This document shows positions 14,360-36,005 of a DNA stretch of 64,000 nt, piece by piece (position 1 is the first letter of the stretch; every line of letters begins with the position of its first letter). The notes below the pieces were generated by a model. That model ran no database searches, was not told the DNA's origin, and worked only from the letters and a program-made list of their open reading frames with translations. A program made the translations under genes and the position numbers. This stretch comes from Amphiscolops sp. MND2022. Lineage: Eukaryota. The stretch spans positions 70,370,001-70,434,000 of the forward strand of contig OZ076415.1 in assembly GCA_964187785.1 (NCBI GenBank), given 5' to 3'.

Positions 14360-15589
14360 TTTTTAGTCGGCGCTTTTAGAAAAGAGCTACTCATGGCCTA
14401 GTGGTTACCGCGAGGGGTCTGAGAAGAATGAGAATTTGTGTTCCAGTCTCGCACTCAACCATTTTTTCAGTTTTCAAAAGTACGGACGCGACCAAAGGAT
14501 CCCCCTTTAGATTATTGTCGGCACTGTGCGACTTTTGTTCAATTTTGACAGGCGACCATGGTCTTACTACAACTCTAGACATCAGTTTTTGTCCCAAAAG
14601 TGGTCTCCTAGGGTGACTTTCCTAACGTCGAAGTGACTCCTCATTTAGAGCTCCGAGGCGACGTGCTGGGGCATTCAAATCCGGACACGTTCCACAAGCA
14701 CTTAAAACGAGTCCCAAGATTTCTTCGACTTCCTTCATACTCCCGAGTTCAAAAAGGCATTTATTTGAAATAAATCCTATTCCTTTCCCTTTCTGTCTCC
14801 CGGAAACATCGTCATTGTCTGCTGGGTTCAAGATGGTACACACAGTGTCGTATCTCGCTTTTGGGGAAGATAAGTAGCTTTCTTGTTGACATCTGGACGC
14901 TTTTTCATTCTTTTTTTGTCTGGGGTGTTCTCTCGTTTTGTCCTAGTGCATCGTCTTCTGAACTGATTTTGGGGTACTTGCTAGGTCGGCCAAGTCACAA
15001 TTAGAGTTTTTCCAAAATTTCTTACAGGTACCCTGTCACAAGGCTGGTGGACGTTACACATCAATTGATGTGATTTCACTTTTGGCCTCTTTCTATATTT
15101 AGCAAGTGCAAAGCGTTTTGCGAGCAGAGAGGGCTGTTCGTTTCTGGCTCAATGCGACTTACCTATTTAAAAATTTCTCGTTGAAAAAAATTTATCGAAA
15201 TATTTTTCTCAATTTCTTTGTTTCTGAGGTTTTCTGAAAGTAAGACACTTTTGCAGTCCAACTGGTGACCTCGTTGATTATTTTTTGGTCATGTGAAAAG
15301 TATTAGAGTTTTCTCAGTAAGTGTGGAATTGACATGTGGTATTTTTTGGCACTGAGGAACTTCGACAGAAAATTGTCTTTGGTCAATGTCAACCCCTTTC
15401 ACTTTCTTGAAAGTTTTCAGCCTTTTTCAGTCATTCCACACCATATTAGAGTCCTATGTATGTGCAATGACATCAAAATCGTAAAACTAGGATCTGAGAA
15501 TCATTGAAAATATTAGTCAGAAAATCTTGAAAAATCCTGCGACAGTAAAGTAAATTCTTTCTTTGTCAATATTTTAATCCTTTTCCGCC
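14360..15589 (-). mobile_element. Long HINE-like family copy, tail portion (interrupted by the Gypsy element)
   Basis: TTTTTAGTCGGCGCTTTT (family tail, reverse strand) at 14360. The reverse complement of 14560-14960 matches blocks of the 32631-34316 unit (GAGCTCTAAAT, CCTAGGAGAC, GTTGTAGTAAG, GACCTAGCA). Confidence 0.55.
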
Positions 15590-16621
15590 TGTCGGAACGT
15601 GTATCAGATTCATTTGATGTGGTGACGTTAGGTACGTTCCCTTCTCTATTGCTAGAGGATGGCTTTTCATTAGACGATATTTTCTCGGTCAGAGCAAGAA
15701 CTAAGTTTGTCAGTTCATTTATTTGTCTAGTCATTTCAGTAAATCTCTGATTTACTACTCGACGTTCTGACTCGCCACTGTAATCCAATAAATTCCCGTT
15801 GTCAAACTCACTCATCTGTTCTCTCGTGAGAACTTCTGGGACACTGCTCTCACTTTCGGTATCGCTATGTCGATCTGTTCGGCACATGAAGGTATGCTGG
15901 TTGTCTGTTACTTGGGATCTCGTATTAACCATTTTGAAGAGATATTGGATTTTTGAGGTTGTATTGATTGATTATGAGAAAGGTTAAGTATTTTGGTAAC
16001 AAATCGTGTTTAACTGAGAGGTACGTACTTAGCAACTGTATCGCAATCTATCGCAAATTCTACTGATGTTACTATTTCACTTGGTAATAATTATGGCGAC
16101 GTTGGTCACGTGACCACATCAACCAATCATATTTCTATTTTTCGTTCGCACCTTTGTTAGTAATTGCGCAATATGGTCGCAGCTCCAAAATGAATGTAGT
16201 TACGTTGCTATGGTTACATGACTCAAATTTGGTATAATGATGTGGTTGCACTACTAGCATCATATATGTGAATGGTTAATGTATATAATTGTTTACATGA
16301 CTAACTGCACCAGAACGAAATCTGATGATGGTGTATCAGCCACATTACTTTCACTTTTAACTAAAAGTTCACGAGATTGATTTAAATAACATGCATAACA
16401 AATGTATGAAATATGGGAGATAATAGTAAAGTTATTTGGGGAATGAATAGAAATGATGCTTTTTAGCAGATTCGAGTTCGAGTTTTATGATGTGGTTGAC
16501 TTCACCACATTCTTCCCTTTCATCATCATTCTTTTACTGTTTTGACATTTTGTTTCTAGTTCAGGTATGCAGGATGGTTGACCACATCATTGTTTGATAT
16601 TTTCATGCGTCAGGCATGACA
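15590..16621 (-). repeat. Gypsy 3' LTR
   Basis: TG...CA termini; near-identical to 29820-30851 (about 6 substitutions by eye). Carries a copy of the first 114 gag codons, which explains the 15513-15932 ORF. Confidence 0.95.
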
Positions 16622-16754
16622 CTACGGGTCTTTTTTGAAAAAGAACATGTGGCTGAAATGGCGAAATGTCTCGTTCAGTTGGTTGGTAGATTGGACGCGG
16701 TATGCTAATGAGCAAGGTTGAAATTGCTGTATTCGTTAATTAGATTGAGCGCTC

Positions 16755-16930
16755 ATGTTGTTATGGTGACCACATTAGTAGTTGCGAGTTGACTTCGTGG
16801 TTGGAAATGAGCAGTGATGTTGTTATAGCAACAACATTGGTAGTGGCGGGATGACATCACGGTCGGAAATAAGCAGCGATGTTGTTATAGTAACCACATT
16901 GGTAGTGGCGAATTGATTTCGTGATTGAAA
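16755..16930. repeat. 62-bp tandem repeat, about 2.8 degenerate units
   Basis: ATGTTGTTATRGYRACMACATTRGTAGTKGCG recurs at 16755, 16817 and 16879. Confidence 0.8.
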
Positions 16931-17602
16931 ATATTCGAGTAGATTGTCGCTTCGGCTCGATATGGCGAGTGAGCGAAGAAAATGTTGGTCACGCATTGGC
17001 TGTTCCACTTCGGTAAAGAGTAAATATAGAGCCGATGTGGCGAGGGTAGCCACGTCATCCAATCGTGCGCATCGTTTGCAGTAAGAGAGTTAAAATAAGA
17101 ATGAATTTGCCGGAAATTAATCTAACGTGGCAGCGTCATATAATTACTCGGCTCATCCGGTAATCGTTCGGAAGTGGTTGTAGTGGAACATCGTGCGCTC
17201 TGTAAACAATTCTTCGTCGATGCCAAATACGAGAAGCAAAAATTTCTCCAGTATATTCTTTTGTGCGATTCTTCGGCAATTCAGTTCGGCCGCGGCTTAC
17301 TGAGTGATTGTATCAATGATCAAGTGGGCTATAATTAGGATAAGCCAGGGAGTCGTATTGTGATTTTGGAGGATTTTTCGGGTAGGCTTTGGCCCTTTTT
17401 GGAGTAGTGTGGTTGGTGAATTTCAGGAATTAGGTTATCCCTTTGGATTTTTTGGGTAGTTACTTTGCATAGACAATGTGGGTGATCAGTCCACATGATC
17501 ATTGGAAGTTACTTTGAACCTCAGTAAATCGCAAACGACTGTGTGCTTTCAGTTCAATAGCCTCAAGTTGATTACTTTTCAGACTTGCTTGTTATTACTG
17601 TC

Positions 17603-20600
17603 ATGAGTTCACCGGCGCAGGAAGGGCCGTCCCAGGCTGATGCAGAAGTAGCTGCAGTTGTGTTGGCAGCAGAAGGAGTGCTCACCGAGCTGGAGCAGTT
17701 CAGTTTCTCTTCGATAGGTAGTGAATTGCCTGCTGCTGTCGAGGAAGCCCTGTCGGGAGAGCGTTTTGGAACGTGTTGTCGCTTTGCGGGCAAGGTGACT
17801 GCTTCCAACAATGAGGCAGCTAACACGTTGTTGGAGATTGCGCTATCGAGTGAATTCCGTGAGTAGTCTCATTATTTCTTTTCTTTTGCCCTTCGCTGTG
17901 TGTAATTAGCGCTCAGGTAGTTTTGTAGGACAGTGACTTCCGTAGTCGTGGGTCACAAGTAGTTTTTTCGAAATAATAACCGATAAAGGTTATCTTTCCT
18001 TCAGAGCATTCTGAATTATTGTAAGCCAGTAGTATGTCGTTTGAGCGGTACTAGCATTGAGGCATGTGTACTTCCCGGGATCTAATGCTCTGGGTAACTG
18101 AGGAGGTGGCTAATGAGACATTATTGTGCTTCAGAAGATTTATCGCTTGTAGACGTCGTAAAGTTACTCCGCTCACTGCTGGCTTCGAAACGAGGTGATG
18201 CCGCGGGTGGTTCAGCCGAAATAACTGCTGTGGAAGATCGCTTCAGTTCCGTCCTTGCTGGTGAACTGGGTAAGTGGTCGGTTGTCATACATCATATCGA
18301 GTATACTACTAGTCTTGGTTCGGTGTTTGGGTCGGCTGTGGTCCGTATGTCGTGTGACACACGTCATATAGCGGAAAAACTGATTTGTGTTGTAGGAACT
18401 TCTGCTGGCGTGCCCGTGACAAGGGCTGAAATGGAGTCTTCGCTGGCACGAATGACGAAAGAATTGTCAGAGACAATCAACGCAGTAATAGATGCGAAGT
18501 TCGGAGAGTTGGGTCCTGCTGGTGTGTTGGCAATCGAAGACTGTGTGCAGAAGTTAAAGGCGGCTACGGACCAACTTGCGGGGGTTGCAACGACTTCTGG
18601 GAGCGGGGCGGATCAGGTCGTACCAGCTGTGCCTCCCGTTCAGTTGGAAGAGTCGATCAGTCCTGTGGCCGTTAGTAGTGCAGCGTCCTTCAGTCCAAGT
18701 CAGTTGTCCGATGTGCCAACTGCGTTCGGAGGAGTGCGGTCGTTGGTGTCGACGGGTGGAGGAGCTGCTACCTCATCAAAACCTGGTAAAGAATCTCAAA
18801 AGATCATGGGAGGGGTTTTAGTAACAGTTCCCAAACTCAAGGCATATAGGAGACTACACACTTTTTTTTGAAGTTAACGGGGGGTTAGGAGTCGTTGCTA
18901 GCACTATTTTGGGTTGCTGGTTTGCGTGTGAGTGTGTCGATTATTTCAGCGCGAGTGAGGAAAGTGAAGACGTTGAAGCCGTCATACTTTGTCTCAGGCG
19001 TGGTCGGGACTTTCGTGGGCTTCCCCCGACACAAACGAGTGGTGGATGGCTACGCTAGATGTCTCCTCTGTAAAGTAGATCTCAGCATTGCTGGGCGTGG
19101 CTTGTCTTCGTTGTGGGAACATTGGCGAGGCGTAGGACATACGCGCCTTGAGCAAAAGTATCGCATAATGATGCAAATGCCACTACTTGATAAAGCTTGC
19201 CGCCCAGTAACCGCAGAGGAGGATAGACGAATTCGCCAAGAAAGGATGACAGAGCCTCCAGTGTATCTGGAGTCCGAGTTGAGTTTGTCCGTGGATGAGA
19301 GGGTCGCGATTGAAGAGGCCGAAGCGTCTGCTGGTGAAAGACCAACATTGCCTACAGAGAGTGCGGCTTACCTGTGGTTAGGCCAATACATAAGCAGCTT
19401 TTGCAATGTTGCTTCGTTCGGTTCTGTGATGAGGATGGTGGAGTCATGGCGAGATGGTATGAGTGCTGAGCTACGTGTCGAGTGTCGCTCCTTGACTTAT
19501 GCCCGATGTCAGGTACGTATATACATTTGCTGTTTTTGGGCTTTAGTACTGAATGCGTGTTTGCGGGCTTTGGTTGTGAAAAGGGGGGGGGTTTCTTAAC
19601 GCGTTGATATGGGTACAGTTGTTTTTGTGTGAATCTATGAGGTGAAGGTGAGCTCCTCATTTGTGTGATTGGCTGTGTTTACAGAGTTTGGTGTTGTACG
19701 GACTGTACCGGTTCGTCGTCGAACAGTTGGACTGTCTGCTATCCCGTGGTAAGAACGTTGGTTTGAGCTTGAGAAGACAGAACTCTGATTGGATCTGTGA
19801 GTGTCATGTGGTCGGAGACTGCGCGATCAAGACTGTGGTTTTTGGCGTAGTGGCCGCCGGAGCTGGGTGGGAGACGAGTATGATTGCCAATGTAGCACCA
19901 GTGTTACTCAGTTTGCAACATGCCTCAAATATCAAGATGTACAGCACTGAGTCTGAGACCCGAATTGGACATGCTCTAGCAGCAGCAATTGGAATCACTG
20001 ATCCCTTGGTTGTCGGTCGAGTGACCCAAATATGGTTGTTGGATCTCGTGAGGAAGCAATTCCTAGCGGAATTTGGCGGTCTCGACCCACTCAGCGTGTT
20101 GGACTACTTGCGTGTTCGTTTAGCCGCTGTAGTGCAGGAGGGCTTCATGGATCGATTGCCGAAACTTAGACGAGTAAGTATTTGGCATTATCGTTTATGA
20201 TGTGGTTATGTATAGGACATTGGTTTGTTAATATATACACGGATATATTTTATTGTTTTTGGTAAATTGAAACGTTAGGTGCGTAGGCTATGACAGTAAG
20301 TAGATTATGTCAAACTTTCAGCTGTGTTTTGTTTTGCAGTTCATTCGCTTTGGAGGGAGTGATGTGGTTGTGTTGGCCTCATTGTGTACTGAAGTCGTTG
20401 AGCACTGGAATGATCTAGCTGTGTACTTTGGCACTCACAGGCCTAACGTGACTTCTGAGCTGCGTCTGGTTACTCCGCTTGAGGTGCAAGTTTTCGACGA
20501 TGCAATGATGCGCCCCCGGTTTGCTGTGTTACGACTCATTCTGGATTTGCGTTAGTTGTCACACGTTTCGATTTTTTTTTTGTTTTTTTTTTTGTTTTTT

Positions 20601-22096
20601 TTTTGTTGATTTTTTTTGTTTGGGTTTTGAATTTGGTGTGATGTAGTAAGTGGCTAGACATAGGCGCGGTTTTCAATATGACTCTTTTGGTGAAGTAATC
20701 CTAAGTCAGAAAAAAGAGGGTATGAACGCTGATTCATGTGTTTTGTTTTGTGTTTGCAGTAGTCGAGACTTGTCCGCGTTTGTGCAGAAGTGGCAGAGAC
20801 AGTAACATGTTAGCAGAGCGCGAGCTGTCACAATTCGTCCGAAAACTTATGTGTTTCGTGTATCCGCCTTCAGTGATCCCTGCGGAATTTGAAGTGAGAG
20901 CCCTGCTGACACCGGTAGACTGCGAGTACGCGACAGTGGACGAGGGCCTTTACAAGCTGCACTTCGGGCAATATTTCCGATACGACGTACGAACCCAGTT
21001 GCCGTTCTTTTATAGATCGGTTCAGAAATTGTTGGGCGTTGTTTGTCGGGAAGTAACAGGAGCATGGGAGCAAGGTGCTATTAGTCACTTTAGTATGACC
21101 CCGTTTGATCCAGAATTGATTCACAGAGGATCTGACGATCGGTGTATCGATGCTCTGGTTGGCACGTGTGCTACTCTGTCGAGATATCAACTCCTTGATG
21201 ATGACGATGTTACTGCTGTACTACGACAATATCGGGAAGTGACACAATTCTTCAAGAAGAAGTGGACGTTGACAGAAAATGCACCGGTAGTTGACGACGT
21301 GGTAACTATGTGGTTCTCTTATCCCTACTGGTCACGATGTCAAGAGTTGTTGACCGTGGTCAACATTCTGTTTGGGCTGAATGCAGTTGGGACTTATGAG
21401 CTAGATTTTGTCGATGATGTGGACGTTGCGATGCCGGTAGATACCCTACGTTCCAGTTTACATTTTGTTCGGAGTTGGCTTGCCAAGTCTTATGCGGGAC
21501 AGACGCGTCAAACTCTAACTGGATTGCTACGAGTGTGCGAGACGAGTGATATGCAGGTCACTCGGTTATCCGATGAGGCCCGAAGTAGACCATGGGATCA
21601 GCTGATGAAATCTGGGTTAGGGGAAGCCTTGGCACGTGGTAATGCTACTTTGTCCAATGAACTGTCACTCCCTACCACGGTGCAGATAGATGATTACCGG
21701 TCGAACGTATTGGCGCAACTTGATCTTGTGGAAGTGCTGAGTCCTCCCCGTCCCGGAAGGCGTAGCAGCCCGGTTCTTAAGCGTGGTACCTCAGTTAAGA
21801 AAGTTGTTCGGCGACAAGAAGACGTTACGTTGCCAGCAAGTGGATCTACCCCTATTCGGTCGTTGCAGCGAAGCAGGACGTCAATTCGGAAAAGTGTGAA
21901 GAGCGCAGTTCGTGAAGGGCCGTCTACAAGTCGTCAGTCTAGCGGGCGCCGGACTGGTGGAAAACCTCGGGGCAAGAAGTTTTTGCAGTTAGCAACCGTT
22001 GGTGACTCCGATAATGACTCGGCTAATGAAGTGGTTGTGAGTGGAAAGAAACGGCAAAGCCGTTGTGCACTATACTCATCGGATGAGCAAGATTAG
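17603..22096 (+). CDS. Spliced 1126-aa zinc-finger protein, probably hAT-transposase-derived, antisense within the Gypsy element
   Basis: Exons 17603-17858, 18135-18269, 18396-18785, 18950-19512, 19685-20173, 20340-20550 and 20760-22096 total 3381 nt, i.e. 1126 aa plus stop. All six introns are GT..AG (donors GTGAGT, GTAAGT, GTAAAG, GTACGT, GTAAGT, GTTAGT; acceptors CAG/TAG after T-rich tracts) with matching phases 1,1,1,0,0,1. Zinc finger CLLC-x16-H-x5-H at 19060-19140. ATTAAA at 22163. Confidence 0.85.
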
Positions 22097-23695
22097 AAGA
22101 AACTGGATAGAGAACATTTCGTGATTGAGTCAATTATTTTGCATTTGTTTTTTGTTTTTATTATTAAACGTTTGAAGTTGGGATATTTGTTCTTGGCATG
22201 TTGACGTGCCTTTTGCTGTTACTATTTGGTGTTTGTGTATTCCTCGCTCTAGATGCTTGATGGTTTATATGTAGACTTTACATGCGTTGTTTACATACTT
22301 TTAGTAGTGCTGATTGATTTCTTGGCTCAGCTTTGATTTCACGCGTGAGCAGGTGGTTAATTTACATGTTGCTTACGTTATACAAATTTTTTACATTGGG
22401 GCTTCGTTAGCTGGTTCAATTTGTCAGGAAGCTGAGTAGAGTTGTTTTTTGTTTCAGTGAGATTGTATGGTGGTTACTTGCCTAGCCACCAATTTAGACA
22501 GAGTTTCATTCACGGAGGTTTACCCACAGGTCTCGGAAAGTGGTATTGACGCCCTGTGGTTACACCAAGGTGAATGAACGGAGCTGCACCGCTCCTTCCC
22601 AATGATCGAACTAGATGCTTTGCATGCTATATATACTCTAAGTGCGTGTGTTTTAACTGGTGTTTACACGCATAAGTGTCATTCTAAGGTGTCAATCATT
22701 TTTTTTGTTTTGCTTTATATGTGTTGTTATACTCGTAAAATTGAGCGTTAGTTCTGACGTCGTCATCACTGATGTGTGTCATGAGACGTCATCACTCGTG
22801 ACGTGTGTCAAATGTTAACGTCAATTTAATGGAAGATGGGTTTCCCCATGTCCATTAAACAGATTTTTGTTCTCTTTTACAAGGGATGGTCTGATCCATC
22901 CCTTGTTTCGAGTTTTCGGGTATGTGGTGATAGTGACTACATGTGCTTTAAGTACCTTGTTCTTTCTGACGCGAGGCGAGGCCTACGAATCACCAGTAAG
23001 AACGAGGGTGTCACGACTTAATTGTCGGGTGAAGTTGGCGTGACGACTGCATGTTACTGTCCTTAAGAAGTTTCGCTTTGCTTTCAGTTCATTTGGAAGG
23101 TTATTTGCCGTCGCAAAAACCCATTCAAAACTAACACCGAATCCACTTGCCAAAGAGCAAGCTTCATCTGAATGTTTGTACAACCACACAGACGCGCTTT
23201 TGACGACGCACCCACACAGCCGAACCACATCATGGCTTTCTAGAGCGGAAGTGTGAGACTAGGTTCTGTTGACGTAACTTAAACGAGTCGGTGTTTTCTT
23301 TTTTGTACTCAACTATGGACTGAGACGTGTTTGAAAACAGTTTAGTTTAGCTGATTTAGGATTAGTGGGTGCAGAATTACCGAGCAATTCCTTTGAAAGT
23401 GTGTGGTTGGGATTTTTTGTGAATTGCATAATTTAGTAGGTCGTTTGTACGTGCTTTACATGTACTTAACAATTTCCGGTTGGAGTGATGTGGCGTATGT
23501 GACTGCATTTCATGTATTTACTTTAGCGCTCAGCTGTCTCGGTAGAGAGTAACATTTTACTCTGCCGGTAAACTTGAGTATGTAGGACAGTGAGTATCAG
23601 TCGTCACTGAATGGTGTAAAATAAATAGGATAATTCAATGGTATGATTGCTGCATGTGGTGATATAGACTACATTGTATTGATTGCATGTATTTT

Positions 23696-26600
23696 CTATT
23701 GGCTTTCAGATTTGCGTTGCATGAATTTTAAAAGGGCGGGCTTTGCTTGCAGTTCGTGAACGAGGAAGTTGTCGAACGTTTTAGGCACAGGTGCCTCTCG
23801 AAGGGTGTATCGAGTAATGTTGTTGCGTGTTATCGGTGTAGGTGTTTCGGCAGATGATGTGGTTGACTCCGCATCATTATGTGTCGGAATTTGTTGTTCA
23901 GACTCATGATTAGGCAGCGATGTAGGTGGTTCGTCAGATTGAATTTCAGTTCTATTTTGGTACGTATTTTCGGTGCGGATGGCTTCAGGAAGCGGGTTAG
24001 ACAGAGGTGGGACTTCGTGAACCCGTTTGTGTTCATAATAAATTGTTCCGTGCTCGGAAGCGATTGCTTCAGTTTCGTTTGTGTCGAGTTCAAATGTGTT
24101 TTCAGCTGGCGGTGATCGTTCGATTGCAGGCAGATTATCGTTGAATATTGACTGATCGTCAATTGCGTCAGGATCACTGTAATGTCGGTTTACGTCATCA
24201 GTCACGTCTTCAATTTTGTCGTGAGGTACAAATGGGCGGAGCCGCATTCTATGTACGCACTGCGTCTTGAAGGTACCGATTTTTCGGATGATATAATTCG
24301 ATTGTGTCAAGACCTTAACAACCTTGTAAGGTCCTTCCCATTTGAAAGAGTTGAAAGGGATTTTTTCTGATTGTGTGGTGATTTTAGGATTCAGTAAAAA
24401 AACAAAGTCGTTTACTTTTAATGGTGATGCTTGTGCCTTTCGGTCATAGTACGCTTTGTACTTGTGAAAGGCTCGGATGATATTGGTGTGAGTTTCTTTG
24501 AATTTGGTGTTCAGGTTGTCCACTAACGACTGTGTATCAGTGGCATTCCTCGGGGGACTAAGAGGGTTGCCAAATTTTAAGTCTAGTGCGTTGTATGGCA
24601 CGCGGCCGTGGAAGACTTCAGTCGGTGAACATTTCAGAGTTTGGTGGTAGGTCGTATTGTGCGCCATCACAGAGAGGTTGACGTATCGGTCCCACTGAGG
24701 GCGGTCGGCAGAGACGTTTATTTTCAGAATCTGTTTCAAACGTTGATGCGACCTTTCGATCATCCCAATAGTTTGGGCATGTTTGATTGTCGCGTGGGAA
24801 ACTTTTATCCCAGCCTTTTCCATCAGTTCAGTTATTACTTGTGAGGTGAAGGCAGAACCTTTGTCAGTGATGATGTGTTTTGGCGCATATGCGTGTTTTG
24901 TGAAAATGTCTAGCAGAGCCTCGACGACAGATTTTGTGTCAGGTTTACGGATTGGGATGGCAAACAGATATCGTGAAAAGTAATCGCAGGCCGTCAGAAT
25001 GTGTGAGTACCCATTAGATCGCGGTAACTCACCTACGAGATCAATTTCCAGAACGTCTTCGGGACCATTGCAAGGGTCGTATATCGGTTCTAGCGGTGGT
25101 TTCACGGTGTTAGGTTTCACAGGTTTAGCTTTAATACAGTCTTGGCAGTTGTTTACAAAGTTTTGGACCTTTTCAGCTAAGTTCGGGATGTAGTACCTTT
25201 TCCTTAGTTCACCTAACATTTTGGAAGCGCCAGGGTGTCCCTGCATGGGGTCGCCATGCATCGTCCTGATTATGGCTTCCGTAGTTTCTGGAGGAACTAC
25301 AATTTGTCGGTAAGCTAAGTTTCCTACGTTGTCAAAAAACTGCCTGTACAACGCGTTGTTCACTACTTCAAGTCTTTTACGGTTCTTAAAGAGTTTTTGG
25401 AAAAAGGTACTTGTAAAGTTCACTTGGTTCGGAGGAGTTTCTTGGACAGTAAGGATCCTAATTACACGTTGAACGTCACTGTTTTCGCCTTGAGCCTTAA
25501 CAATTTCTGAAGTCCCCGAAGGGCATACCTGATTTACCGCGTGAACCTGGTTCCGTTGGCAAAATCGGGTGAAGAACAGTGCTGGGTCAGAGGGCGTTAC
25601 AAATGGTTGCACCTGGGTTTTGATGTCATCAATGCGTCTACGGTACTGTTCGTCGTCTTCGTGACACCATTGAGGGAACATCGCCAAGAGTGACTGCATC
25701 GTTGGATTTGGTGATGTAGTAGCATCAGGCACATTCGTCGCGTCTGGAATGTAATCGTCTTCCTCATCGTCCTGTTTGGGTGTTTTTGATGCCAAGTCAA
25801 TTTCGACCTTGAAGACTGGTATCTCGTCGTGTAGCTTGAGGTGGATCCTGTCCTTTGGGTGGATGTCGATTCTGGACAGGTAGTCAGCTGCTGGGTTCTC
25901 GACTCCAGGTACATGGGCCAGGACGAAGTCGAATTGGAGGGCCTGGTCGCAGTAGTTCCACAGTTTAGGAGGTATTCGTTTAGACTGGAAGAATCTTGTG
26001 AGGGCTTTGTTGTCAGTCATGACGATTGTCGGTTTCTTCACTCCCCACAAGATATGAGCGAACTCATCAAATGCGAAGTGCATAGCCAGGAACTCTTTTG
26101 CATACATCGTGAGCGACATCTGGCCCTCAGTAAACCTTTGTGAACCAAAGTCTACTGGTGCGTATGACTTCGTCGGTCCGTCATTCGTCTCAGTGTAATC
26201 CTCGATCAAGAGAACGTATCCAGCTGCATGCTCGCTAGCATCGCACATGATCACTAGTTGTTTGTCCGGAAGTGGTAGTCGCAGGGACATCTTGGCTGCG
26301 TTTGCTAGGTTCTCATTGATGTCGAACATGGCATCTTTGTGGACTTGCGTTAGTTCGAATTTGGCGTCTTTCTGTAGGAGTTTGTAGAGTGGAACAAGTT
26401 TTTCTGCTAGGCATGGAATGTATTGGCGGTAGAATTGGACGAATCTTATGTATCGTTGTAAAGATTTCACAGACGTCGGTAATTTGATGTTTTTCAAAAA
26501 CTTGTCAATTTTTTCTTCGATTGGGGCAACTCCCTTGGAGGTGATGCTACGTCCCAGGAATTCTATCTCAGGGTGTCCGAAAGCACATTTGGCCATTGAC

Positions 26601-28345
26601 AGTTTTAGGCCAGCTTGTTTGATTTTCATGAACACAGCCTCAATGTTGTTGACTAGCTCTTCGACATTGTTGGCTGCAATGCCGATGTCATCGACGTATT
26701 GGGCACATTTGTCGGCCTTGACCAAGGGGTCCAAGTACTCTCGAACAGTGCTGTTGAAGGCTGATAGTGATCGATTCAATCCTTGGGCTAGTCTGAGGTA
26801 GGCGAACGTCCTACTTCCGAAGTTGAAAGCGAGTAACTGGACTGACTGTTCCTCTGCCATTTGCAAACAATGGTATGCTTGTGAACAGTCCAGTTTGCAG
26901 AAATATCGCTTTCCTGCCATGTGTTGTGCTGCGTCTGCCGTTGTCGTCACCGGATGGTTGTGCTGATTGTAGTCATTCTTCAGCAAGTGATTGATCCGTC
27001 TGAGGTCTACGAGGATTCTAAGCTTCCCATTTGGTTTGCGTTGGGCGAAGATGGGTGAAGAGTACTTGCTGTACGGCAATGTTGTGATTATGCCGTACTC
27101 CTGCATCAACGCCAATTCAACCAGTAAGTCGTCTTTCAGGTTCGTCGGTGTGGGTAAGCTTTGAGCATAGACTGGTTCGTCGTGTTTGGGAGTCAACTTT
27201 ATCTTGAATTCGGTGTTGATCCCTATGTCCAGTCTATGTCTGGCGAATATATCATGGTACTTGACCAATAGGGCCTCGATTTTCTGTTTCTCGTGAAGGC
27301 TCAGTATTGATTGTTCCCACTGGAAATTTGCCAGAAATTCATGGCGTTGTTCTTCACTTGCTGTTGGATCTAGTTTCTCCTCGGCCCTGAGTTTGACGAT
27401 TTCGTCATAGATTCGTTTTTCAATCTTGTTGAGTTTTGACGGGTCGTCACAAGTCTCAGGTGTAGGGTACCATCTTCTATCTGATTTGGTAGTCGGATCC
27501 TGGAAGATTTGGTTCAAGACAGCTTCGGCATCATCTGGGTACTGGGAAATCAGGTTTAGTTGGTGATTGGTCATCGGTTGGAGGTTGTTGGCTTGCTTCG
27601 GTGTCATTATTTTGAATGATGCCACTGGTGTACCCACATTGATGGTAATTTGGTAGTCGAGTGGGTTTGTGATCTGGACATGAGTCCGCCCCTCCTGGGT
27701 CTCGTTGAGAGCCGGAGAAACCAACAGATGTGAGCGTCTTTCAAAGGCTGGTAGTCCTTCGACAGTGCCAGTGATGTCGCCTAGGTCGCGTTCAATCACC
27801 ACCGGGACGAACACTTGTTGATTGGGTTGGATCACAGTCTTTTGAGTTGTCTTCAATTCGAGTAGTTTGTTTTTGAATTTCCCGTTGACTGTTCGTAATT
27901 GGAGGGTGATGTCCGGGAATTTGACGATGTTGTTGGCTAAATCCAGGGTAACGGAGTATTTTTTGAAGAATGACATTCCGATGAGTATATTCCCCATCGT
28001 TGGGAGGACCATGAATGTCTCTTCGAAGATTTTTCCCCCGATGAAGAATCGTAGTAGGACTTGTTTCCTCACTGGAACGATGTTTCCATTGGCGATTTGG
28101 ACTTTGAACTCCGGAGCAGGGAGTTCCTGGAGGAGGGCGGCTGGGTGGGCTGTGAGGATGCGGCGGAGTTCCGCTTCTGAGAGAGCACTTTGGATTGCTC
28201 CCGTGTCAAGTAGTCCGAAGTTTTCATATTCGCGGAATTGAAGTGGTACGTATAACATCTTGTCCTTTTTGTTGAGTTGCAGGGTGGCACTCAACTGGCG
28301 TATTTCGGACTTCGGTTTCTTCTGTTGGTTTCCTGGTTTTGACAT
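23696..28345 (-). CDS. pol: Gypsy Pol polyprotein (PR-RT-RH-INT); frame is open upstream to 28651
   Basis: PR LLDTGA; RT KLDCSQAY and QYVDDI; RH MCDASEHAAG and MTDNKAL; INT HGDPMQGH...CQDC, IDL, TDKG, IERSH; GPY/F-like WEGPYKV. No stops over 1549 aa. Confidence 0.97.
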   Translation of the reverse strand: MSKPGNQQKKPKSEIRQLSATLQLNKKDKMLYVPLQFREYENFGLLDTGAIQSALSEAELRRILTAHPAALLQELPAPEFKVQIANGNIVPVRKQVLLRFFIGGKIFEETFMVLPTMGNILIGMSFFKKYSVTLDLANNIVKFPDITLQLRTVNGKFKNKLLELKTTQKTVIQPNQQVFVPVVIERDLGDITGTVEGLPAFERRSHLLVSPALNETQEGRTHVQITNPLDYQITINVGTPVASFKIMTPKQANNLQPMTNHQLNLISQYPDDAEAVLNQIFQDPTTKSDRRWYPTPETCDDPSKLNKIEKRIYDEIVKLRAEEKLDPTASEEQRHEFLANFQWEQSILSLHEKQKIEALLVKYHDIFARHRLDIGINTEFKIKLTPKHDEPVYAQSLPTPTNLKDDLLVELALMQEYGIITTLPYSKYSSPIFAQRKPNGKLRILVDLRRINHLLKNDYNQHNHPVTTTADAAQHMAGKRYFCKLDCSQAYHCLQMAEEQSVQLLAFNFGSRTFAYLRLAQGLNRSLSAFNSTVREYLDPLVKADKCAQYVDDIGIAANNVEELVNNIEAVFMKIKQAGLKLSMAKCAFGHPEIEFLGRSITSKGVAPIEEKIDKFLKNIKLPTSVKSLQRYIRFVQFYRQYIPCLAEKLVPLYKLLQKDAKFELTQVHKDAMFDINENLANAAKMSLRLPLPDKQLVIMCDASEHAAGYVLLIEDYTETNDGPTKSYAPVDFGSQRFTEGQMSLTMYAKEFLAMHFAFDEFAHILWGVKKPTIVMTDNKALTRFFQSKRIPPKLWNYCDQALQFDFVLAHVPGVENPAADYLSRIDIHPKDRIHLKLHDEIPVFKVEIDLASKTPKQDDEEDDYIPDATNVPDATTSPNPTMQSLLAMFPQWCHEDDEQYRRRIDDIKTQVQPFVTPSDPALFFTRFCQRNQVHAVNQVCPSGTSEIVKAQGENSDVQRVIRILTVQETPPNQVNFTSTFFQKLFKNRKRLEVVNNALYRQFFDNVGNLAYRQIVVPPETTEAIIRTMHGDPMQGHPGASKMLGELRKRYYIPNLAEKVQNFVNNCQDCIKAKPVKPNTVKPPLEPIYDPCNGPEDVLEIDLVGELPRSNGYSHILTACDYFSRYLFAIPIRKPDTKSVVEALLDIFTKHAYAPKHIITDKGSAFTSQVITELMEKAGIKVSHATIKHAQTIGMIERSHQRLKQILKINVSADRPQWDRYVNLSVMAHNTTYHQTLKCSPTEVFHGRVPYNALDLKFGNPLSPPRNATDTQSLVDNLNTKFKETHTNIIRAFHKYKAYYDRKAQASPLKVNDFVFLLNPKITTQSEKIPFNSFKWEGPYKVVKVLTQSNYIIRKIGTFKTQCVHRMRLRPFVPHDKIEDVTDDVNRHYSDPDAIDDQSIFNDNLPAIERSPPAENTFELDTNETEAIASEHGTIYYEHKRVHEVPPLSNPLPEAIRTENTYQNRTEIQSDEPPTSLPNHESEQQIPTHNDAESTTSSAETPTPITRNNITRYTLREAPVPKTFDNFLVHELQAKPALLKFMQRKSESQ

Positions 28346-28626
28346 AGTGGTTCGTTTCTCATCATTCGGTTGGTCAGGCAGTGTGCGATCTGAAATCGGG
28401 TGTTGGATGTTGTGGGCTTCAGGTCTTCGTTTGGTCTCCTTCGGTTTAATGGTGTAGTTGTCAGTTGAGTGTCTCGTGATGACGAAGTTAGTAGTTTCCT
28501 TAGTGTAAGTAGGAGGACGGGACTGCCACCCCGTGTGGTTTGCAGTATGTAGTCGGGTCAGAGGAGTAGTTTGTTGGTGTTCGTTTAGTAGCGCACTTTT
28601 GTATGTTTGAGGAGGATGACGTGGCT

Positions 28627-30162
28627 TTAGAAGTTTTTTGGATCTTCTACGTCATCGTGTCGTTCTGTTTCCTCAGCATCTTCGATGTCATCGTTGGCAG
28701 TGTGGGACATTTCATTGGCGTTGTAGACCCTACTGTTCGCCTGTTTGAAGTCCCTTCTAAATTGTCGGTTTTCCTCGGTCGATTGCTTAGGGTACGGGAC
28801 GCTTCGGTAGGCGTACGTCCCCGTGTTCCTGTAGTAGCAATCTCGGGCGGAGTATCCCACTTTGCCACAAATTTGGCACACAAGTTTGGGATTATATCTG
28901 GGCTTGATCTCTTGAGTTTGGGCGAGTTGGGTTGGTTGTTGCTGGTTTTGGCCCTGGGGTTTGGTTTGTGCTTCCTCCCGGAGGCGTTTCCTGCACTCAA
29001 CCCACTTGTGGCCATGTATTCCGCAGTGGCGACATTGGCCATCAAATTTTCGTTTTGCCTCCCTGGGTTGTTGGGTTTGGACGTTTGATGTCTGAGGTGT
29101 GGCTACATTCGGCTGGGGTGCGCTTATCTGATTGAATGGTTGCGCACTGGTTGTATTAGGAATGAGCTGCGCATATTGACATCTGCGCTGCACAAATGTC
29201 CTGATCTCCTCCATCGATGCATCATGTTTGCCTGCCATGGCCAAATCGTTTTGCATTTGAACGGGGAGTTTCGCAAATAGAAACGTCTCTGTAATATCGC
29301 TGGACTTGTCCCCAAATGCCTGCTTTGCGACTTTTTTGAACTTGTTGAGGAAGTCATTGAAGGTCTCTGCTGAAGGGTCGTAGCGCATCTGGTCGAATTT
29401 GTATTTGGCCACTTCCTTCAAATCTTCTTTTGCGTATTTCTTCTTGAAGTAACGCAGTACTTGGGCCAGTGTTGTCTGGTTCGTTATTTTCAGCGATTGC
29501 CAAAATTCAATTGCATCGTCGCGTAACAGGCTCTGGAAGTATGTCAGTTTCTGTTCTTCTGACAATTTGTGTTGGTGTGGCCTGAGGTGGTTGAGCAGCA
29601 GGTGCTCAAACTCGTTGTACTTTTCTCGGTTTCCGCGGAATAGTGGGACTTGTGTGTGCAAAATTTTTGGATGTTGCACCGTGTCCGTCATCGTGTCCCT
29701 CAGGTGGTGGATTACAGTGACAATGTCGTCGAACTGCTGAGCGGATGACTGAGGGTATTGTGAGGTGGATTGGCGTGGTGGGTTCGGTAGTTGGCTGGTT
29801 GTTGGAACTCCTGTTACCACGTCGGAACGTGTATCAGATTCATTTGATGTGGTGATGTTAGGTACGTTCCCTTCTCTATTGCTAGAGGATGGCTTTTCAT
29901 TAGACGATATTTTCTCGGTCAGAGCAAGAACTAAGTTTGTCAGTTCATTTATTTGTCTAGTCATTTCAGTAAATCTCTGATTTACTACTCGACGTTCTGA
30001 CTCGCCACTGTAATCCAATAAATTCCCGTTGTCAAACTCACTCATCTGTTCTCTCGTGAGAACTTCTGGGACACTGCTCTCACTTTCGGTATCGCTATGT
30101 CGATCTGTTCGGCACATGAAGGTATGCTGGTTGTCTGTTACTTGGGATCTCGTATTAACCAT
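28627..30162 (-). CDS. gag: Gypsy Gag (511 aa), initiating inside the 5' LTR
   Basis: Capsid-like region (FRGNREKYNEFEH, LLRDDAIEFWQ); zinc knuckle CRHCGIHGHKWVEC and variant CQICGKVGYSARDC. The ATG at 30162 lies within the LTR 29820-30851. Confidence 0.93.
   Translation of the reverse strand: MVNTRSQVTDNQHTFMCRTDRHSDTESESSVPEVLTREQMSEFDNGNLLDYSGESERRVVNQRFTEMTRQINELTNLVLALTEKISSNEKPSSSNREGNVPNITTSNESDTRSDVVTGVPTTSQLPNPPRQSTSQYPQSSAQQFDDIVTVIHHLRDTMTDTVQHPKILHTQVPLFRGNREKYNEFEHLLLNHLRPHQHKLSEEQKLTYFQSLLRDDAIEFWQSLKITNQTTLAQVLRYFKKKYAKEDLKEVAKYKFDQMRYDPSAETFNDFLNKFKKVAKQAFGDKSSDITETFLFAKLPVQMQNDLAMAGKHDASMEEIRTFVQRRCQYAQLIPNTTSAQPFNQISAPQPNVATPQTSNVQTQQPREAKRKFDGQCRHCGIHGHKWVECRKRLREEAQTKPQGQNQQQPTQLAQTQEIKPRYNPKLVCQICGKVGYSARDCYYRNTGTYAYRSVPYPKQSTEENRQFRRDFKQANSRVYNANEMSHTANDDIEDAEETERHDDVEDPKNF
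28633..28639 (-). promoter_or_regulatory. -1 ribosomal frameshift slippery heptamer A_AAA_AAC
   Basis: Gag ends CCA AAA AAC TTC TAA. The -1 frame (AAA AAA CTT CTA AAG...) is the pol frame and has no stop from 28651 to 23696 (translated by hand). Confidence 0.85.
29806..29819 (-). promoter_or_regulatory. Gypsy primer-binding site TGGTAACAGGAGTT
   Basis: Begins with TGG directly after the 5' LTR end. It resembles the complement of a tRNA-Leu(UAA)-type 3' end, but the tRNA identity is inferred. Confidence 0.8.
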
Positions 30163-30851
30163 TTTGAAGAGATATTGGATTTTTGAGGTTGTATTGATTG
30201 ATTATGAGAAAGGTTAAGTATTTTGGTAACAAATCGTGTTTAACTGAGAGGTACGTACTTAGCAACTGTATCGCAATCTATCGCAAATTCTACTGATGTT
30301 ACTATTTCACTTGGTAATAATTATGGCGACGTTGGTCACGTGACCACATCAACCAATCATATTTCTATTTTTCGTTCGCACCTTTGTTAGTAATTGCGCA
30401 ATATGGTCGCAGCACCAAAATGAATGTAGTTACGTTGCTATGGTTACATGACTCAAATTTGGTATAATGATGTGGTTGCACTACTAGCATCATATATGTG
30501 AATGGTTAATGTATATAATTGTTTACATGACTAACTGCACCAGAACGAAATCTGATGATGGTGTATCAGCCACATTACTTTCACTTTTAACTAAAAGTTC
30601 ACGAGATTGATTTAAATAACATGTTTACCAAATGTATGAAATATGGGAGATAATAGTAAAGTTATTTGGGGAATGAATAGAAATGATGCTTTTTAGCAGA
30701 TTCGAGTTCGAGTTTTATGATGTGGTTGACTTCACCACATTCTTCCCTTTCATCATCATTCTTTTACTGTTTTGACATTTTGTTTCTAGTTCAGGTATGC
30801 AGGATGGTTGACCACATCATTGTTTGATATTTTCATGCGTCAGGCATGACA
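29820..30851 (-). repeat. Gypsy 5' LTR
   Basis: Starts TGTCATG on the minus strand and ends CCGACG (CA changed to CG). Contains the palindrome GGTCACGTGACC and a CCAAT/ATTGG motif upstream of the gag ATG. Confidence 0.95.
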
Positions 30852-30856
30852 CCGCC

Positions 30857-32274: not shown

Positions 32275-32630
32275 AACAAGCCGGGAACAACCCAAGTCAA
32301 CGCCCGCTCAAGGCGCAAAAAGGGCTAAGAATCACTTTGGAAAATCTTCGGTGCTACTGAAATTTTTCTTCATATGAAAACAACAAAAAAAACTTGGGAA
32401 AAAGATGGGCACTTGGGAAAAGTTTCCAAACAAATTGCATAGTGTCAACATATTTCAAAAGGATCTTTTGCTACCTTTTAGTGCAATGATCTGCTTCCTA
32501 TACACGTTTTCGACTTGCTCAGTGATAATAATGGACCACGAACGAAGTTGAACGAAGTTAAAGAAACAAAGAACACTCGGTGTGAAGCTGAAAGCAAAAG
32601 AAAACAAGACGGGAACGTCTCAAGTCGGTG
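32275..32630 (+). mobile_element. Two adjacent HINE-like heads (32275 and 32603)
   Basis: AACAAGCCGGGAACAACCCAAGTCAACGCC at 32275 and AACAAGACGGGAACGTCTCAAGTCGGTGCCCC at 32603. Confidence 0.55.
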
Positions 32631-35600
32631 CCCCACTTAAGGCTCAAAAAGCACAAAATTTTTGAAAGAAGCTGAGATCTTTTTCAAAGAATGATGTAAG
32701 AAACAAATGTAAGAGTGCGGAAAACACCCAAAAAGAAACCTTTTCGCTCGGCAAACGTTTTTCGGGGACCCTTTGGTCCCAAATAATATTGAGGATAGTG
32801 TGTCCCCTTTAGCCTCGTTAGGTACTCTATAAAATGGATGCGTAAAATCTGTAATAAGATGACAATTCAGTGTGATTTCTCTGGTCTAACGAAAAAGAAC
32901 CTGCATAAAATCATAAGGAACACACCTGAAAACGAAAACGCTTTTCAATGCAGAAATATCAAAACAAATATGAAAAAAGGTTTCCACAAAAACCCACAGA
33001 GTGCCGCAGGTACTTTCGCAGATTGGTGAAAGTGTTTTAAAAAGTCTGACGGCAAGGGTTCAAACCCACGGGTCGTCTGCGTGTGAAAAAAGAACCGTAA
33101 CCACTGAACCACTTGGTGGACGCCACAGGAGTGTCGGGCAGGATTGTACAAAAAGTATGCACTGAAAAAAATTTAGTCAGTGTATTGGTCAGCTTTTTTG
33201 TAACGTCAACCAGTCCATGAACGAAATTTTTGAAAATTTCGAAGTATCACACAAAATGAAAATGGTCGACCTAGCAGGTACTTCGAATCAGTCTGGAATA
33301 CAAAAAAAAAAGAAAACAAGACAGCCCTCAACCCGAGAGAACACACACGCTAGCCCCATACACGCAGAGACGCCCCGGAAAACTGAGAAGTCACCGTAAT
33401 AGTGTGTGCCAAAGGAGAACGTCACGGTAGAAAATTCCACCAAAAAAAATGCGGAAAACCCGAGAAGCAGACCTCCGACTTTTGAACCGATTATGCCCAA
33501 AACACAAAATTCGCTGAATTACGGTCCATGGTGGTGCTTTATTTGTAGCTATCCCGAGTTGCCAGTGGTACTTTTTCAGGTATTTTATGATGTATGATCT
33601 ACTAGATCAATATTTTAGATCTTATTCCGCAAATTCAATTCCGCATTTCAGCTAATTGCCATTTTTGGACCTGGGAAGTATGTAGAAAGTTGCAGGAACC
33701 TTAGGAAACGTTTTTACGTGCTTGTGGGACGTATCGGAACTTTGGGAGCTCTAAATTGAGGTGTCTCCTTGACGTATGAAAGGTCCCCTAGGAGACATTT
33801 TTGGGAGAAAGACTAGTGTCCAGGGTTGTAGTAAGGTAACGGTCTCCTGTTTAAGCAATCTAGGCAATGTCCCAGTTCAAAGATGTACGCTACTGGCTTG
33901 ACGTTTCATCTAGAATAGTTTTTATGGCGACCACAGGGGGATCCTTTTACCTTTTTCGTCAGTCTTTTGAGTTTTTCTGCTTTCCGGCACTGAAAGGTTC
34001 GGATATAGGAAAAGCCTACGGGAGGGTAGAAGATTGTTTTATTTTTTGTTGCGAATGTTAGTCTTTTTTCAAAAAGGACTTTCGCGTGCGTTTCCTGTGT
34101 GTTTAAGAGGTCTGGCAAATTGAATTGACAGTTTTAAGCGATGTACCCTATTTGACGGAACAGTACCTGTGAGAAACTCGTATTCGGCTTAATAGGATTT
34201 TGTTTTAAAAATTTTTGAGCCTTGTTTAGCTAATTGTTAATGTACTGGATATGTCAGGACGTGTAGTGAAGGCTCCGATTGTTTTGGACGAGTTTGCGAG
34301 CATGGTGAAGACACTTCCCCACTTAAGGCTCAAAAAGCAGAAAATTTTTGAAAGAAGCTGAGATCTTTTTCAAAGAATGATGTAAGAAACAAATGTAAGA
34401 GTGCGGAAAACACCCAAAAAGAAACCTTTTCGCTCGGCAAACGTTTTTCGGGGACCCTTTGGTCCCAAATAATATTGAGGATAGTGTGTCCCCTTTAGCC
34501 TCGTTAGGTACTCTATAAAATGGATGCGTAAAATCTGTAATAAGATGACAATTCAGTGTGATTTCTGTGGTCTAACGAAAAAGAACCTGCATAAAATCAT
34601 AAGGAACACACCTGAAAACGAAAACGCTTTTCAATGCAGAAATATCAAAACAAATATGAAAAAAGGTTTCCACAAAAACCCACAGAGTGCCGCAGGTACT
34701 TTCGCAGATTGGTGAAAGTGTTTTAAAAAGTCTGACGGCAAGGGTTCAAACCCACGGGTCGTCTGCGTGTGAAAAAAGAACCGTAACCACTGAACCACTT
34801 GGTGGACGCCACAGGAATGTCGGGCAGGATTGTACAAAAAGTATGCACTGAAAAAAATTTAGTCAGTGTATTGGTCAGCTTTTTTGTAACGTCAACCAGT
34901 CCATGAACGAAATTTTTGAAAATTTCGAAGTATCACACAAAATGAAAATGGTCGACCTAGCAGGTACTTCGAATCAGTCTGGAAAACAAAAAAAAAGAAA
35001 ACAAGACACCCCTCAACCCGAGAGAACACACACGCTAGCCCCATACACGCAGAGACGCCCCGGAAAACTGAGAAGTCACCGTAATAGTGTGTGCCAAAGG
35101 AGAACGTCACGGTAGAAAATTCCACCAAAAAAATGCGGAAAACCCGAGAAGCAGACCTCCGACTTTTGAACCGATTATGCCCAAAACACAAAATTCGCTG
35201 AATTACGGTCCATGGTGGTGCTTTATTTGTAGCTATCCCGAGTTGCCAGTGGTACTTTTTCAGGTATTTTATGATGTATGATCTACTAGATCAATATTTT
35301 AGATCTTATTCCGCAAATTCAATTCCGCATTTCAGCTAATTGCCATTTTTGGACCTGGGAAGTATGTAGAAAGTTGCAGGAACCTTAGGAAACGTTTTTA
35401 CGTGCTTGTGGGACGTATCGGAACTTTGGGAGCTCTAAATTGAGGTGTCTCCTTGACGTATGAAAGGTCCCCTAGGAGACATTTTTGGGAGAAAGACTAG
35501 TGTCCAGGGTTGTAGTAAGGTAACGGTCTCCTGTTTAAGCAATCTAGGCAATGTCCCAGTTCAAAGATGTACGCTACTGGCTTGACGTTTCATCTAGAAT

Positions 35601-36005
35601 AGTTTTTATGGCGACCACAGGGGGATCCTTTTACCTTTTTCGTCAGTCTTTTGAGTTTTTTCTGCTTTCCGGCACTGAAAGGTTCGGATATAGGAAAAGC
35701 CTACGGGAGGGTAGAAGATTGTTTTATTTTTTGTTGCGAATGTTAGTCTTTTTTCAAAAAGGACTTTCGCGTGCGTTTCCTGTGTGTTTAAGAGGCCTGG
35801 CAAATTGAATTGACAGTTTTAAGCGATGTACCCTATTTGACGGAACAGTACCTGTGAGAAACTCGTATTCGGCTTAATAGGATTTTGTTTTAAAACTTTT
35901 TGAGCCTTGTTTAGCTAATTGTTAATGTACTGGATATGTCAGGACGTGTAGTGAAGGCTCCGATTGTTTTGGACGAGTTTGCGAGCATGGTGAAGACACT
36001 TCCCC
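32631..36005 (+). repeat. Near-identical 1.69-kb tandem duplication of a long HINE-like body
   Basis: CCCCACTTAAGGCTC at 32631 and 34317; both units end GAAGACACTTCCCC (34320, 36005). Identical short ORFs are offset by 1684-1686 bp. Confidence 0.92.
33047..33118 (-). other. tRNA-derived (Val-CAC-like) A/B-box cassette, not a functional tRNA; second copy at 34733-34804
   Basis: Minus strand: GTGGTTCAGTGGTTA (A box), TTCACACGCAGACGACC (anticodon-arm-like) and GGGTTTGAACCC (B box). No paired acceptor stem. Confidence 0.5.

Follow-up and report, generated by a model that had tools for sequence, protein, structure and literature searches.

The DNA analysed here, 64,000 nucleotides of contig OZ076415.1 of Amphiscolops sp. 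MND2022 (assembly GCA_964187785.1, positions 70,370,001 to 70,434,000 of the forward strand) and called the window below, carries on its minus strand a Ty3/Gypsy element of 15,262 bp, and inside this element, on the plus strand and antisense to gag and pol, lies a gene of seven exons. The boldest reading considered here is that a clade of animal long terminal repeat (LTR) retrotransposons may have domesticated a DNA transposase, together with its introns, as a sequence-specific transcription or anti-silencing factor of its own, with old and diverged alleles swapped as cassettes; the probability of this reading as a whole is put at about 0.4. The layout of the gene, its presence throughout the family, its conserved splice sites, the purifying selection acting on it and the recombination of cassettes are hardly in doubt. 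Descent of the protein from a hAT transposase, with catalysis lost, is well supported by sequence comparison and predicted models although it is not proven, and we only infer its expression, nuclear DNA binding, target and positive regulatory role.

The spliced antisense gene and its carrier element

The rejoined exons give a frame of 3381 nt encoding 1126 amino acids (aa) with no internal stops, and the six introns of 276, 126, 164, 172, 166 and 209 nt are all of the GT-AG type with phases 1, 1, 1, 0, 0 and 1. An earlier note, made from the letters of this DNA, had placed the same six introns and the same frame, and both stand. The GC content is 50–56% in the exons and 32–45% in the introns, five of the six introns have stops in all three frames, and judging from the sequence splicing should occur at the six junctions. 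The features of gene and element are, in order along the window:

15585..15589, no strand, left target site duplication, CCGCC, matching 30852..30856
15590..16621, minus, 3' LTR of 1032 bp, from comparison of the LTR pair
16622..17602, plus, presumed promoter and 5' untranslated region of the antisense gene, from the 3' LTR to the start codon
16746..16931, no strand, three tandem units of 62 bp with an imperfect palindrome in each
17603..17858, plus, exon 1, with ATG at 17603
17859..18134, plus, intron 1, phase 1
18135..18269, plus, exon 2
18270..18395, plus, intron 2, phase 1
18396..18785, plus, exon 3, with a helical beginning and then a fast-evolving linker rich in Ser, Pro and Thr
18786..18949, plus, intron 3, phase 1
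18950..19512, plus, exon 4, carrying the zinc finger
19060..19140, plus, BED-like C2H2 finger with C298, C301, H318 and H324
19513..19684, plus, intron 4, phase 0
19685..20173, plus, exon 5, RNase H-like fold in the predicted model, no conserved acidic catalytic residues
20174..20339, plus, intron 5, phase 0
20340..20550, plus, exon 6
20551..20759, plus, intron 6, phase 1
20760..22096, plus, exon 7, in which aa 683–900 (20762–21415) align with Hermes 368–577
22097..23695, no strand, non-coding spacer from the gene to pol
22163..22168, plus, ATTAAA, possible poly(A) signal of this subfamily alone, 67 nt past the stop
23083..23225, no strand, non-coding block, 83–85% identical in the two most distant subfamilies
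23696..28651, minus, pol, 1651 codons from stop to stop, with protease (PR), reverse transcriptase (RT), RNase H (RH) and integrase (IN), from domain matches
28627..30162, minus, gag, an open reading frame (ORF) beginning within the 5' LTR and continuing across the primer-binding site
29807..29819, minus, primer-binding site adjoining the 5' LTR
29820..30851, minus, 5' LTR of 1032 bp, from comparison of the LTR pair
30852..30856, no strand, right target site duplication, CCGCC, matching 15585..15589

The carrier element is young, as had been supposed: its LTRs differ by five mismatches and one terminal base over 1032 bp, or about 0.5%, the CCGCC duplication flanks it, and gag and pol are both found on the minus strand. 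The LTRs end in TG and CA, with one altered base at the inner end of the 5' LTR. The best match of pol among solved structures is the Ty3-G Gag-Pol (E 7e-45), and the pol frame is -1 relative to gag, with an A-AAA-AAC heptamer preceding the gag stop. The first 114 or so codons of gag lie within the LTR (29820–30162, and again 15590–15932), so that the primer-binding site falls inside gag and the gag start is repeated in the 3' LTR. The primer-binding site presumably resembles tRNA-Leu, and at the polypurine position before the 3' LTR (16622–16660) there is a short A-rich run only, with no clear polypurine tract.

Because the genomic RNA is transcribed in the minus-strand orientation, introns of a plus-strand gene are not spliced from it and are copied back into DNA, while a copy in the sense orientation would lose them. 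The strong donor motif GTRAGT occurs nine times on the gene strand and once on the genomic-RNA strand between 16622 and 23695, as expected if introns persist only when antisense, and agrees with the earlier claim that the antisense layout retains them.

The region 16622..17602 is 76% identical to subfamily B, referred to below as the 70% subfamily, across 980 nt, and alignment offsets point to fewer of the 62-bp units in copy L009 and more in copies L006 and L007. At the other end of the gene, the ATTAAA that the earlier note had placed about 70 nt downstream is present, at 22163, but it is not a conserved signal, since all seven copies from other subfamilies lack A(A/T)TAAA within 300 nt of the stop and the hexamer is private among the eight subfamilies compared. 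A long imperfect inverted repeat lies at 22505–22578, and the segment 22490–22600 folds at a z of about -2.8 on both strands.

Family-wide presence, selection and cassette exchange

The genome searched for copies comprises 1.07 Gb in 1929 contigs, and the Runt and Wnt domains encoded in it mark the host as an animal. With exon 7 as query 95 of 1061 candidates were scored, 19 of them at 96–100% identity and the others at 46–72%, and with exon 4 150 of 5242 first-look candidates, all at 67% or more; these counts are lower bounds, and more distant tiers emerge with other queries. In all 24 copies with enough flank, from eight subfamilies, pol lies antisense directly downstream of the gene, and the location of the gene is identical in the eight subfamilies sampled, so the earlier note's alternative of a gene occurring mainly outside LTR elements is not borne out among these copies. 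The 24 copies were chosen from the match lists, mostly for high scores and open frames, and intactness is therefore overstated among them. The pairing also holds among unselected matches, where the 19 pol matches at 98% or more sit one-to-one by position with the 19 exon 7 matches at 96% or more. Five shorter loci stop before pol. Three of them have 91% of the spacer in common with L031, a fourth is copy L032 itself, and in the last the match is limited to 40 nt. The antisense gene is an integral part of the element, and a host gene lying across the element was rejected as an explanation.

In seven of ten young copies the frame is open and the twelve splice sites are complete, and the other three have, respectively, stops, an altered donor, and a deletion with loss of the start. 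Three of seven copies of the 70% subfamily could be mapped cleanly, and each has an open frame and all splice sites. Intron lengths vary by subfamily (intron 1 is 276 or about 205 nt, intron 6 is 209 or about 144 nt), while the exons stay in frame. In 11 distinct diverged copies GT or AG is found at the exact predicted base at 93 of 98 testable exon edges, where only edges reached by the alignment are counted and L030 and L032, which are the same copy, are counted once; two of the five misses are donors that nucleotide alignment places correctly, and one is a GC donor. Chance stitching of ORFs was rejected on this count, and the splice sites keep their expected position to the base even where protein identity falls to about 37%. 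Compared with the window, indels in the ten young copies number two over the 3381 bases of exon and 63 over the 1113 bases of intron, the comparisons not being independent; 48 of the 63 are at single-base runs, and outside such runs there are two in exons and 15 in introns, at two and five sites. Among the scored exon 4 and exon 7 matches, a lower-bound sample, no open frame longer than 499 aa was found that could represent an intron-less copy.

The earlier note had proposed a functional accessory gene, with the ratio of nonsynonymous (dN) to synonymous (dS) substitution rates, omega, between copies as a check, and the homologous copies bear this out with purifying values of about 0.07–0.12, far from 1. 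The codon model gives 0.118 for the gene (9 copies) and 0.100 for pol aa 750–1130 (8 copies), and relative to the 70% subfamily the window has a dN of 0.20–0.21 and a dS of 2.6–3.1, with dS saturated beyond that subfamily. Among 11 young copies the variants found in a single copy are near neutral (61 nonsynonymous to 31 synonymous and three stops, with a neutral ratio of 2.25), and those in at least two copies number 30 to 51 (Fisher p 1.4e-4). Since private variants are near neutral and shared ones purged, the copies decay after insertion while the replicating lineages keep the protein, which is the pattern expected of a gene serving the element. Exon 4 is the best-conserved exon in the most distant subfamilies, with 61–64% identity versus 33–41% for the core and exon 7.

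The gene is far more diverged than the backbone that carries it. When the window is compared with the 70% subfamily, dS rises from 0.26 in gag through 0.34–0.44 in PR-RT-RH and 0.93–0.96 in the integrase to about 2.8 in the antisense gene, and in L023 a spacer 85% identical to the window over 1342 nt accompanies a protein of 50% identity. The edge of the cassette, where likeness to other subfamilies starts, is about 260–650 nt beyond the stop. The approximately unbiased test, run with pol aa 750–1130 on six representatives, each a single copy and one of them in decay, finds the pol tree incompatible with the gene alignment (p 0.0002) and the gene tree incompatible with the pol alignment (p 0.009). 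RT-RH, integrase and gene agree on the deepest split, which sets L031 and L032 apart from all others, indicating that the gene was already in the clade before that split. Alleles have moved between backbones afterwards, the simplest putative mechanism being template switching.

More distant relatives of exon 7 at 24–26% identity (P0061 and P0151–P0153) were found on short contigs. P0061 is 26% identical over 410 aa and has no match above 28% in the genome, so the family probably extends to another organism. No longer exon 7 homologue was found among 8000 candidates, only six proteins emerged as longer homologues of exon 4, and every one inspected was a frame of the same family reading through an intron, and none of 49 pattern matches in metagenome contigs was confirmed. 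Among individual copies, a stretch from intron 5 through exon 6 into intron 6 is present twice within L022, at about 1945–3440, the two versions being separated by spacer-like DNA; five exon 4 matches on one strand at C1:55531848–55575605, about 10.5–11.6 kb apart, form a tandem array of elements; and at least 14 matches with identical score in the L031 subfamily suggest a very recent burst.

Likeness to hAT transposases and the proposed role

A degenerate hAT transposase was proposed from the sequence before the comparisons described below were made. The finger of exon 4 has the form C-x2-C-x16-H-x5-H, its four ligands are kept in 11 of 12 aligned rows, and zf-BED is the sole Pfam family touched by this exon, under the cut-off (E 0.026, 2 of 11 members). 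The named look-alikes of exon 4 in the Atlas, at 0.92–0.93, are clusters of three kinds, FAM200B-like (with zf-BED on 10% of members), GTF2IRD2 and SPIN-DOC-like, which belong to hAT-derived families, with unnamed clusters ranking above them at 0.94–0.95. Predicted models cover exon 5 and, for exon 7, its first 333 codons. The exon 5 model (predicted local distance difference test, pLDDT, 81) runs helix, three strands, helix, strand, helix, strand, which is the RNase H topology, and in Foldseek Hermes 8sjd is second with E 1.4e-3 and the joint-highest template modelling score of 0.40, amid HIV integrase and RNase H chains. Exon 5 thus has an RNase H-like fold in the model, and the fold alone does not single out hAT.

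The exon 7 model is all-helical (pLDDT 72), and in a wide structural search of 48,161 chains Hermes 8edg aligned with it over 149 residues (368–577, Z 5.2, root-mean-square deviation (rmsd) 4.1), versus 114 residues at rmsd 16 and then 95 for the next-longest alignments. The same entry aligns with exon 5 over 101 residues (155–264, Z 5.2, rmsd 4.0) and is the single one common to both top-50 lists. The two matches are collinear with Hermes, aa 452–558 corresponding to 155–264 and aa 683–900 to 368–577, with order and spacing in agreement. Hermes-type hAT proteins are shorter, by about 260 residues at the N-terminal and 225 at the C-terminal end. No conserved residue is found across the family at the positions corresponding to the D/D/E triad and CxxH, which were assigned by eye from the models, and around the gene there is no inverted pair of 11–14 nt with a flanking duplication of at least 6/8. 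The protein is no orphan; it is probably a catalytically dead hAT transposase. An active nested hAT transposon was rejected, there being neither terminal repeats with a duplication nor a catalytic triad. An Env-like gene was likewise rejected, because the gene is antisense, no stretch of 19 residues exceeds a hydropathy of 1.73, reached on a predicted beta strand, and exon 7 has no viral fold match. In the sequence search of solved structures exon 7 gave a best E of 0.73 and exon 4 no match; recognition of exon 7 in the Atlas was low, with unnamed fungal clusters as a lead only, and the 153 representative matches were unnamed in the 10 clusters looked up. Elements of the hAT type are abundant in the genome (150 scored of 2215 candidates), many with long open frames.

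In the proposed course of events an ancestral Ty3/Gypsy element would have received an intron-bearing hAT transposon, in reverse orientation, in the region that separates pol from the 3' LTR. The backward orientation would have hidden the introns of the insert on the genomic RNA and let them pass through reverse transcription, and only an insertion in this orientation could persist with introns, since those on the plus strand escape splicing of the genomic RNA. The insert may then have dropped its terminal repeats and catalytic residues, retained the zinc finger and oligomer scaffold, and become fixed as a third gene. Transcription would start from the integrated copy at a promoter in or beside the 3' LTR, with host-like splicing, and the predicted protein would enter the nucleus, bind short repeats in the element's own non-coding DNA and keep the element transcribed, as activator or anti-silencing factor. 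The most conserved region is that of the finger, and the tail at aa 1001–1126 in exon 7 is a basic low-complexity sequence with 21% K/R, likely by its composition a nuclear signal, which together fit a nuclear DNA-binding protein. A positive regulator of the element's transcription is the favoured role, and the odds on it are about even.

Candidate targets of the protein are the variable 62-bp repeat beside the 3' LTR and a set of enriched motifs. ACATGTA, ACCACAT and others are more than 20-fold enriched in the non-coding parts of the element versus the flanking DNA, in homologous spacers, so that the counts are not independent. ATGTGG/CCACAT has 31 sites in the 15.3-kb element and 13 in 48.7 kb of flank, often in imperfect palindromes (15590–16621, 16746–16931, 22922, 23654). 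The first 38 or so nucleotides of intron 3 (18786–18823) are 72–95% conserved in seven of eight loci of other subfamilies, and the rest of this intron is not; since the reading frame is not kept there the constraint should be on nucleotides, and the block is a candidate splicing regulator or genomic-RNA signal. A second intronic block, at about 18055–18100 in intron 1, is common to L019, L024 and L023. The block at 23083–23225 is conserved though the proteins of the two subfamilies concerned are only 37–41% identical; it folds no better than shuffles (z -0.3 to -1.7), with one small hairpin in the three copies folded.

Several results weigh against this reading. The Z of Hermes is 5.2 both times with the noise level of the tool at about 8, and for exon 5 Hermes is only at rank 40, HIV integrase and RNase H scoring alike. 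In Foldseek no match for exon 5 reaches E 0.001, and exon 7 gave none in either library, PDB or viral. Against four hAT transposases of the same genome hhalign gives E 0.083, on the C-terminal dimerisation region (PF05699), and hmmsearch does no better than shuffles, while Pfam has nothing above the cut-off in four window frames, 23 further sequences and 11 aligned exon 4 rows. As to the role, CpG is hardly depleted (observed to expected 0.94 in the flanks, with CpG transitions 1.8 times others), which makes a VANC-like role in demethylation unlikely, and any silencing opposed would more likely be based on histones or piRNA. The host genome has a Runt gene, and the enriched TGTGGT motif coincides with the consensus of Runx proteins. 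Finally, a diffusible product invites cheaters without the gene, yet there are none among the 19 youngest copies, so that the favoured role needs a cis preference or an action specific to the subfamily.

A protein of the same origin could instead be a cofactor of integration or nuclear import, binding cDNA ends or target chromatin and guiding the integrase complex, and this we hold to be unlikely. That hAT transposases bind element ends as oligomers is textbook knowledge, the tail is basic, the selection seen in lineages that replicate would suit a factor travelling with the particle, and the integrase diverges more across subfamilies than the RT, along with the gene (identity to the window 69–95% and 86–97% respectively). 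The mutual rejection of the gene and pol trees, the latter built on aa 750–1130 as a whole, argues against a tight pairing of proteins, and the target duplications seen differ.

More doubtful still is a repressor that controls copy number and is kept since unrestrained elements kill their carriers, much as HBZ of human T-cell leukaemia virus (HTLV) type 1 dampens transcription from the 5' LTR. Repression is a frequent role of dead transposases. Antisense retroviral proteins, too, are described as repressing sense transcription (PMC10186651). Elements that lose a repressor should however out-replicate the others, yet amino-acid changes are depleted among the variants that copies share, and with 5242 first-look exon 4 candidates the family is highly abundant.

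It is improbable that the protein acts on RNA, exporting, protecting or packaging the unspliced genomic RNA like CERV of Cer1 or Rev. BED-type fingers bind DNA according to textbook knowledge, and although the conserved non-coding blocks are a possible RNA target, the one in the spacer has no fold beyond that of shuffles. A precedent in an animal LTR element is described (PMC10309623). Just as improbable is a gene that is real and selected but derived from another RNase H-fold protein or DDE class, with a role unrelated to DNA binding: the hAT scores are weak, RNase H folds and helical bundles are common and few eukaryotic transposase classes have solved structures, but three separate regions resemble hAT parts in the correct order. 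An independent nested DNA transposon or neutral passenger, which the abundance of hAT elements in the genome might suggest, is already largely refuted and very improbable, given the missing terminal repeats and catalytic triad, the same place in all eight subfamilies and the strong purifying selection.

Comparison with known systems

The closest layout is that of the plant Ty3/Gypsy elements with aORF-3R genes (maize Grande gene23, rice RIRE2 and the Retand TRP28 ORFs), which are extra antisense ORFs between pol and the 3' LTR (PMC7264820; PMC11963269, PMC6317226). The likeness extends to position and orientation, presence in most copies, tandem repeats in the same region and the regulatory role proposed for the plant genes, and for the antisense gene of maize Grande an own promoter and a nuclear protein have been demonstrated (PMC7264820; PMC11963269). 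The hosts there are plants and the word intron is absent from PMC11963269, whereas here the host is an animal and the gene has six conserved introns and encodes 1126 aa. According to PMC7264820 and PMC11963269 the aORF-3R genes lack similarity to other transposons, an insertion of a transposon is set aside for that reason, and the origin and function of antisense accessory genes are considered unsolved. The present gene differs in its traceable likeness to a DNA transposase, and the family offers a probable case of transposon insertion. By layout the gene belongs to the aORF-3R kind, and it is neither of the TRP28 family nor an active hAT element; TRP28 (PF04195) gave no Pfam match in four ORFs covering exons 3, 4, 5 and 7, exons 1, 2 and 6 lying outside the scan.

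The earlier note knew of no animal Gypsy family with this architecture. Literature searches outside Repbase, most subscription journals and supplements brought up neither a spliced antisense gene in an animal LTR family nor one of hAT descent. The layout as such is known from plants and fungi. In fungi, the gene brtn of the Boty-like Ty3/Gypsy elements of Botrytis and Sclerotinia (Zhao et al. 2011) reportedly lies antisense between pol and the 3' LTR and is said to have many introns; the layout is the same, the carriers are fungal chromoviruses, and brtn is likened to the present gene by description only. The probable novelties are the animal host, the retention of all six introns between deeply diverged copies, a likely descent from a DNA transposase, and the swapping of cassettes.

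With hAT transposases (Hermes, PDB 8edg, 8sjd and 4d1q, and the ZBED, FAM200, GTF2IRD2 and SPIN-DOC offshoots) the protein shares an RNase H-like core and, by weak matches, seems to share a BED-like finger, a helical insertion and a C-terminal region, all in the same order. Unlike the domesticated offshoots it is kept by a retrotransposon and not by the host, and it lacks a conserved D/D/E triad and CxxH as well as terminal repeats. CERV of the C. elegans element Cer1 is encoded in the sense orientation. It is likewise an element-encoded accessory protein for expression, but is made from a spliced Cer1 mRNA and acts in RNA export (PMC10309623). HBZ of HTLV-1 and the APH proteins of HTLV-2/3/4 are nuclear regulators from spliced antisense transcripts of the 3' LTR side, as proposed here, but they are small bZIP-type proteins of exogenous retroviruses that overlap sense genes, while the present gene has seven exons, is transposase-like and occupies its own region (PMC10186651). 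VANC of the plant VANDAL elements is an anti-silencing accessory protein that co-evolves with its DNA target, and differs in belonging to a DNA transposon, acting on DNA methylation and deriving from a host protein (PMC13547354, PMC12859917). The env of the Oikopleura Tor elements, expressed from an internal promoter, is a precedent for an extra factor in an animal LTR element, and a survey of annelid retroelements mentions antisense ORFs in its introduction only.

If the boldest reading is true, the family would be a retroelement counterpart of VANC with a Class II enzyme as its starting material, and would exemplify how antisense accessory genes arise. It gives a clear prediction, DNA binding via the BED-like finger, together with many natural alleles, and shows a route by which an intron-bearing gene of 4.5 kb can pass through RNA-based replication in an animal. 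Annotation based on ORFs may miss such genes, since split genes resemble scattered short frames.

Elsewhere in the window, fragments of other retroelements are found on the minus strand at 45832–46881 and 50522–51100 (SH3-like and integrase pieces, and an RT piece). Only three of 14 candidate Wnt-domain matches in the genome have E 1e-8 or better. A tandem duplication with a period of about 1685 bp and 98–99% identity extends over about 32600–36000.

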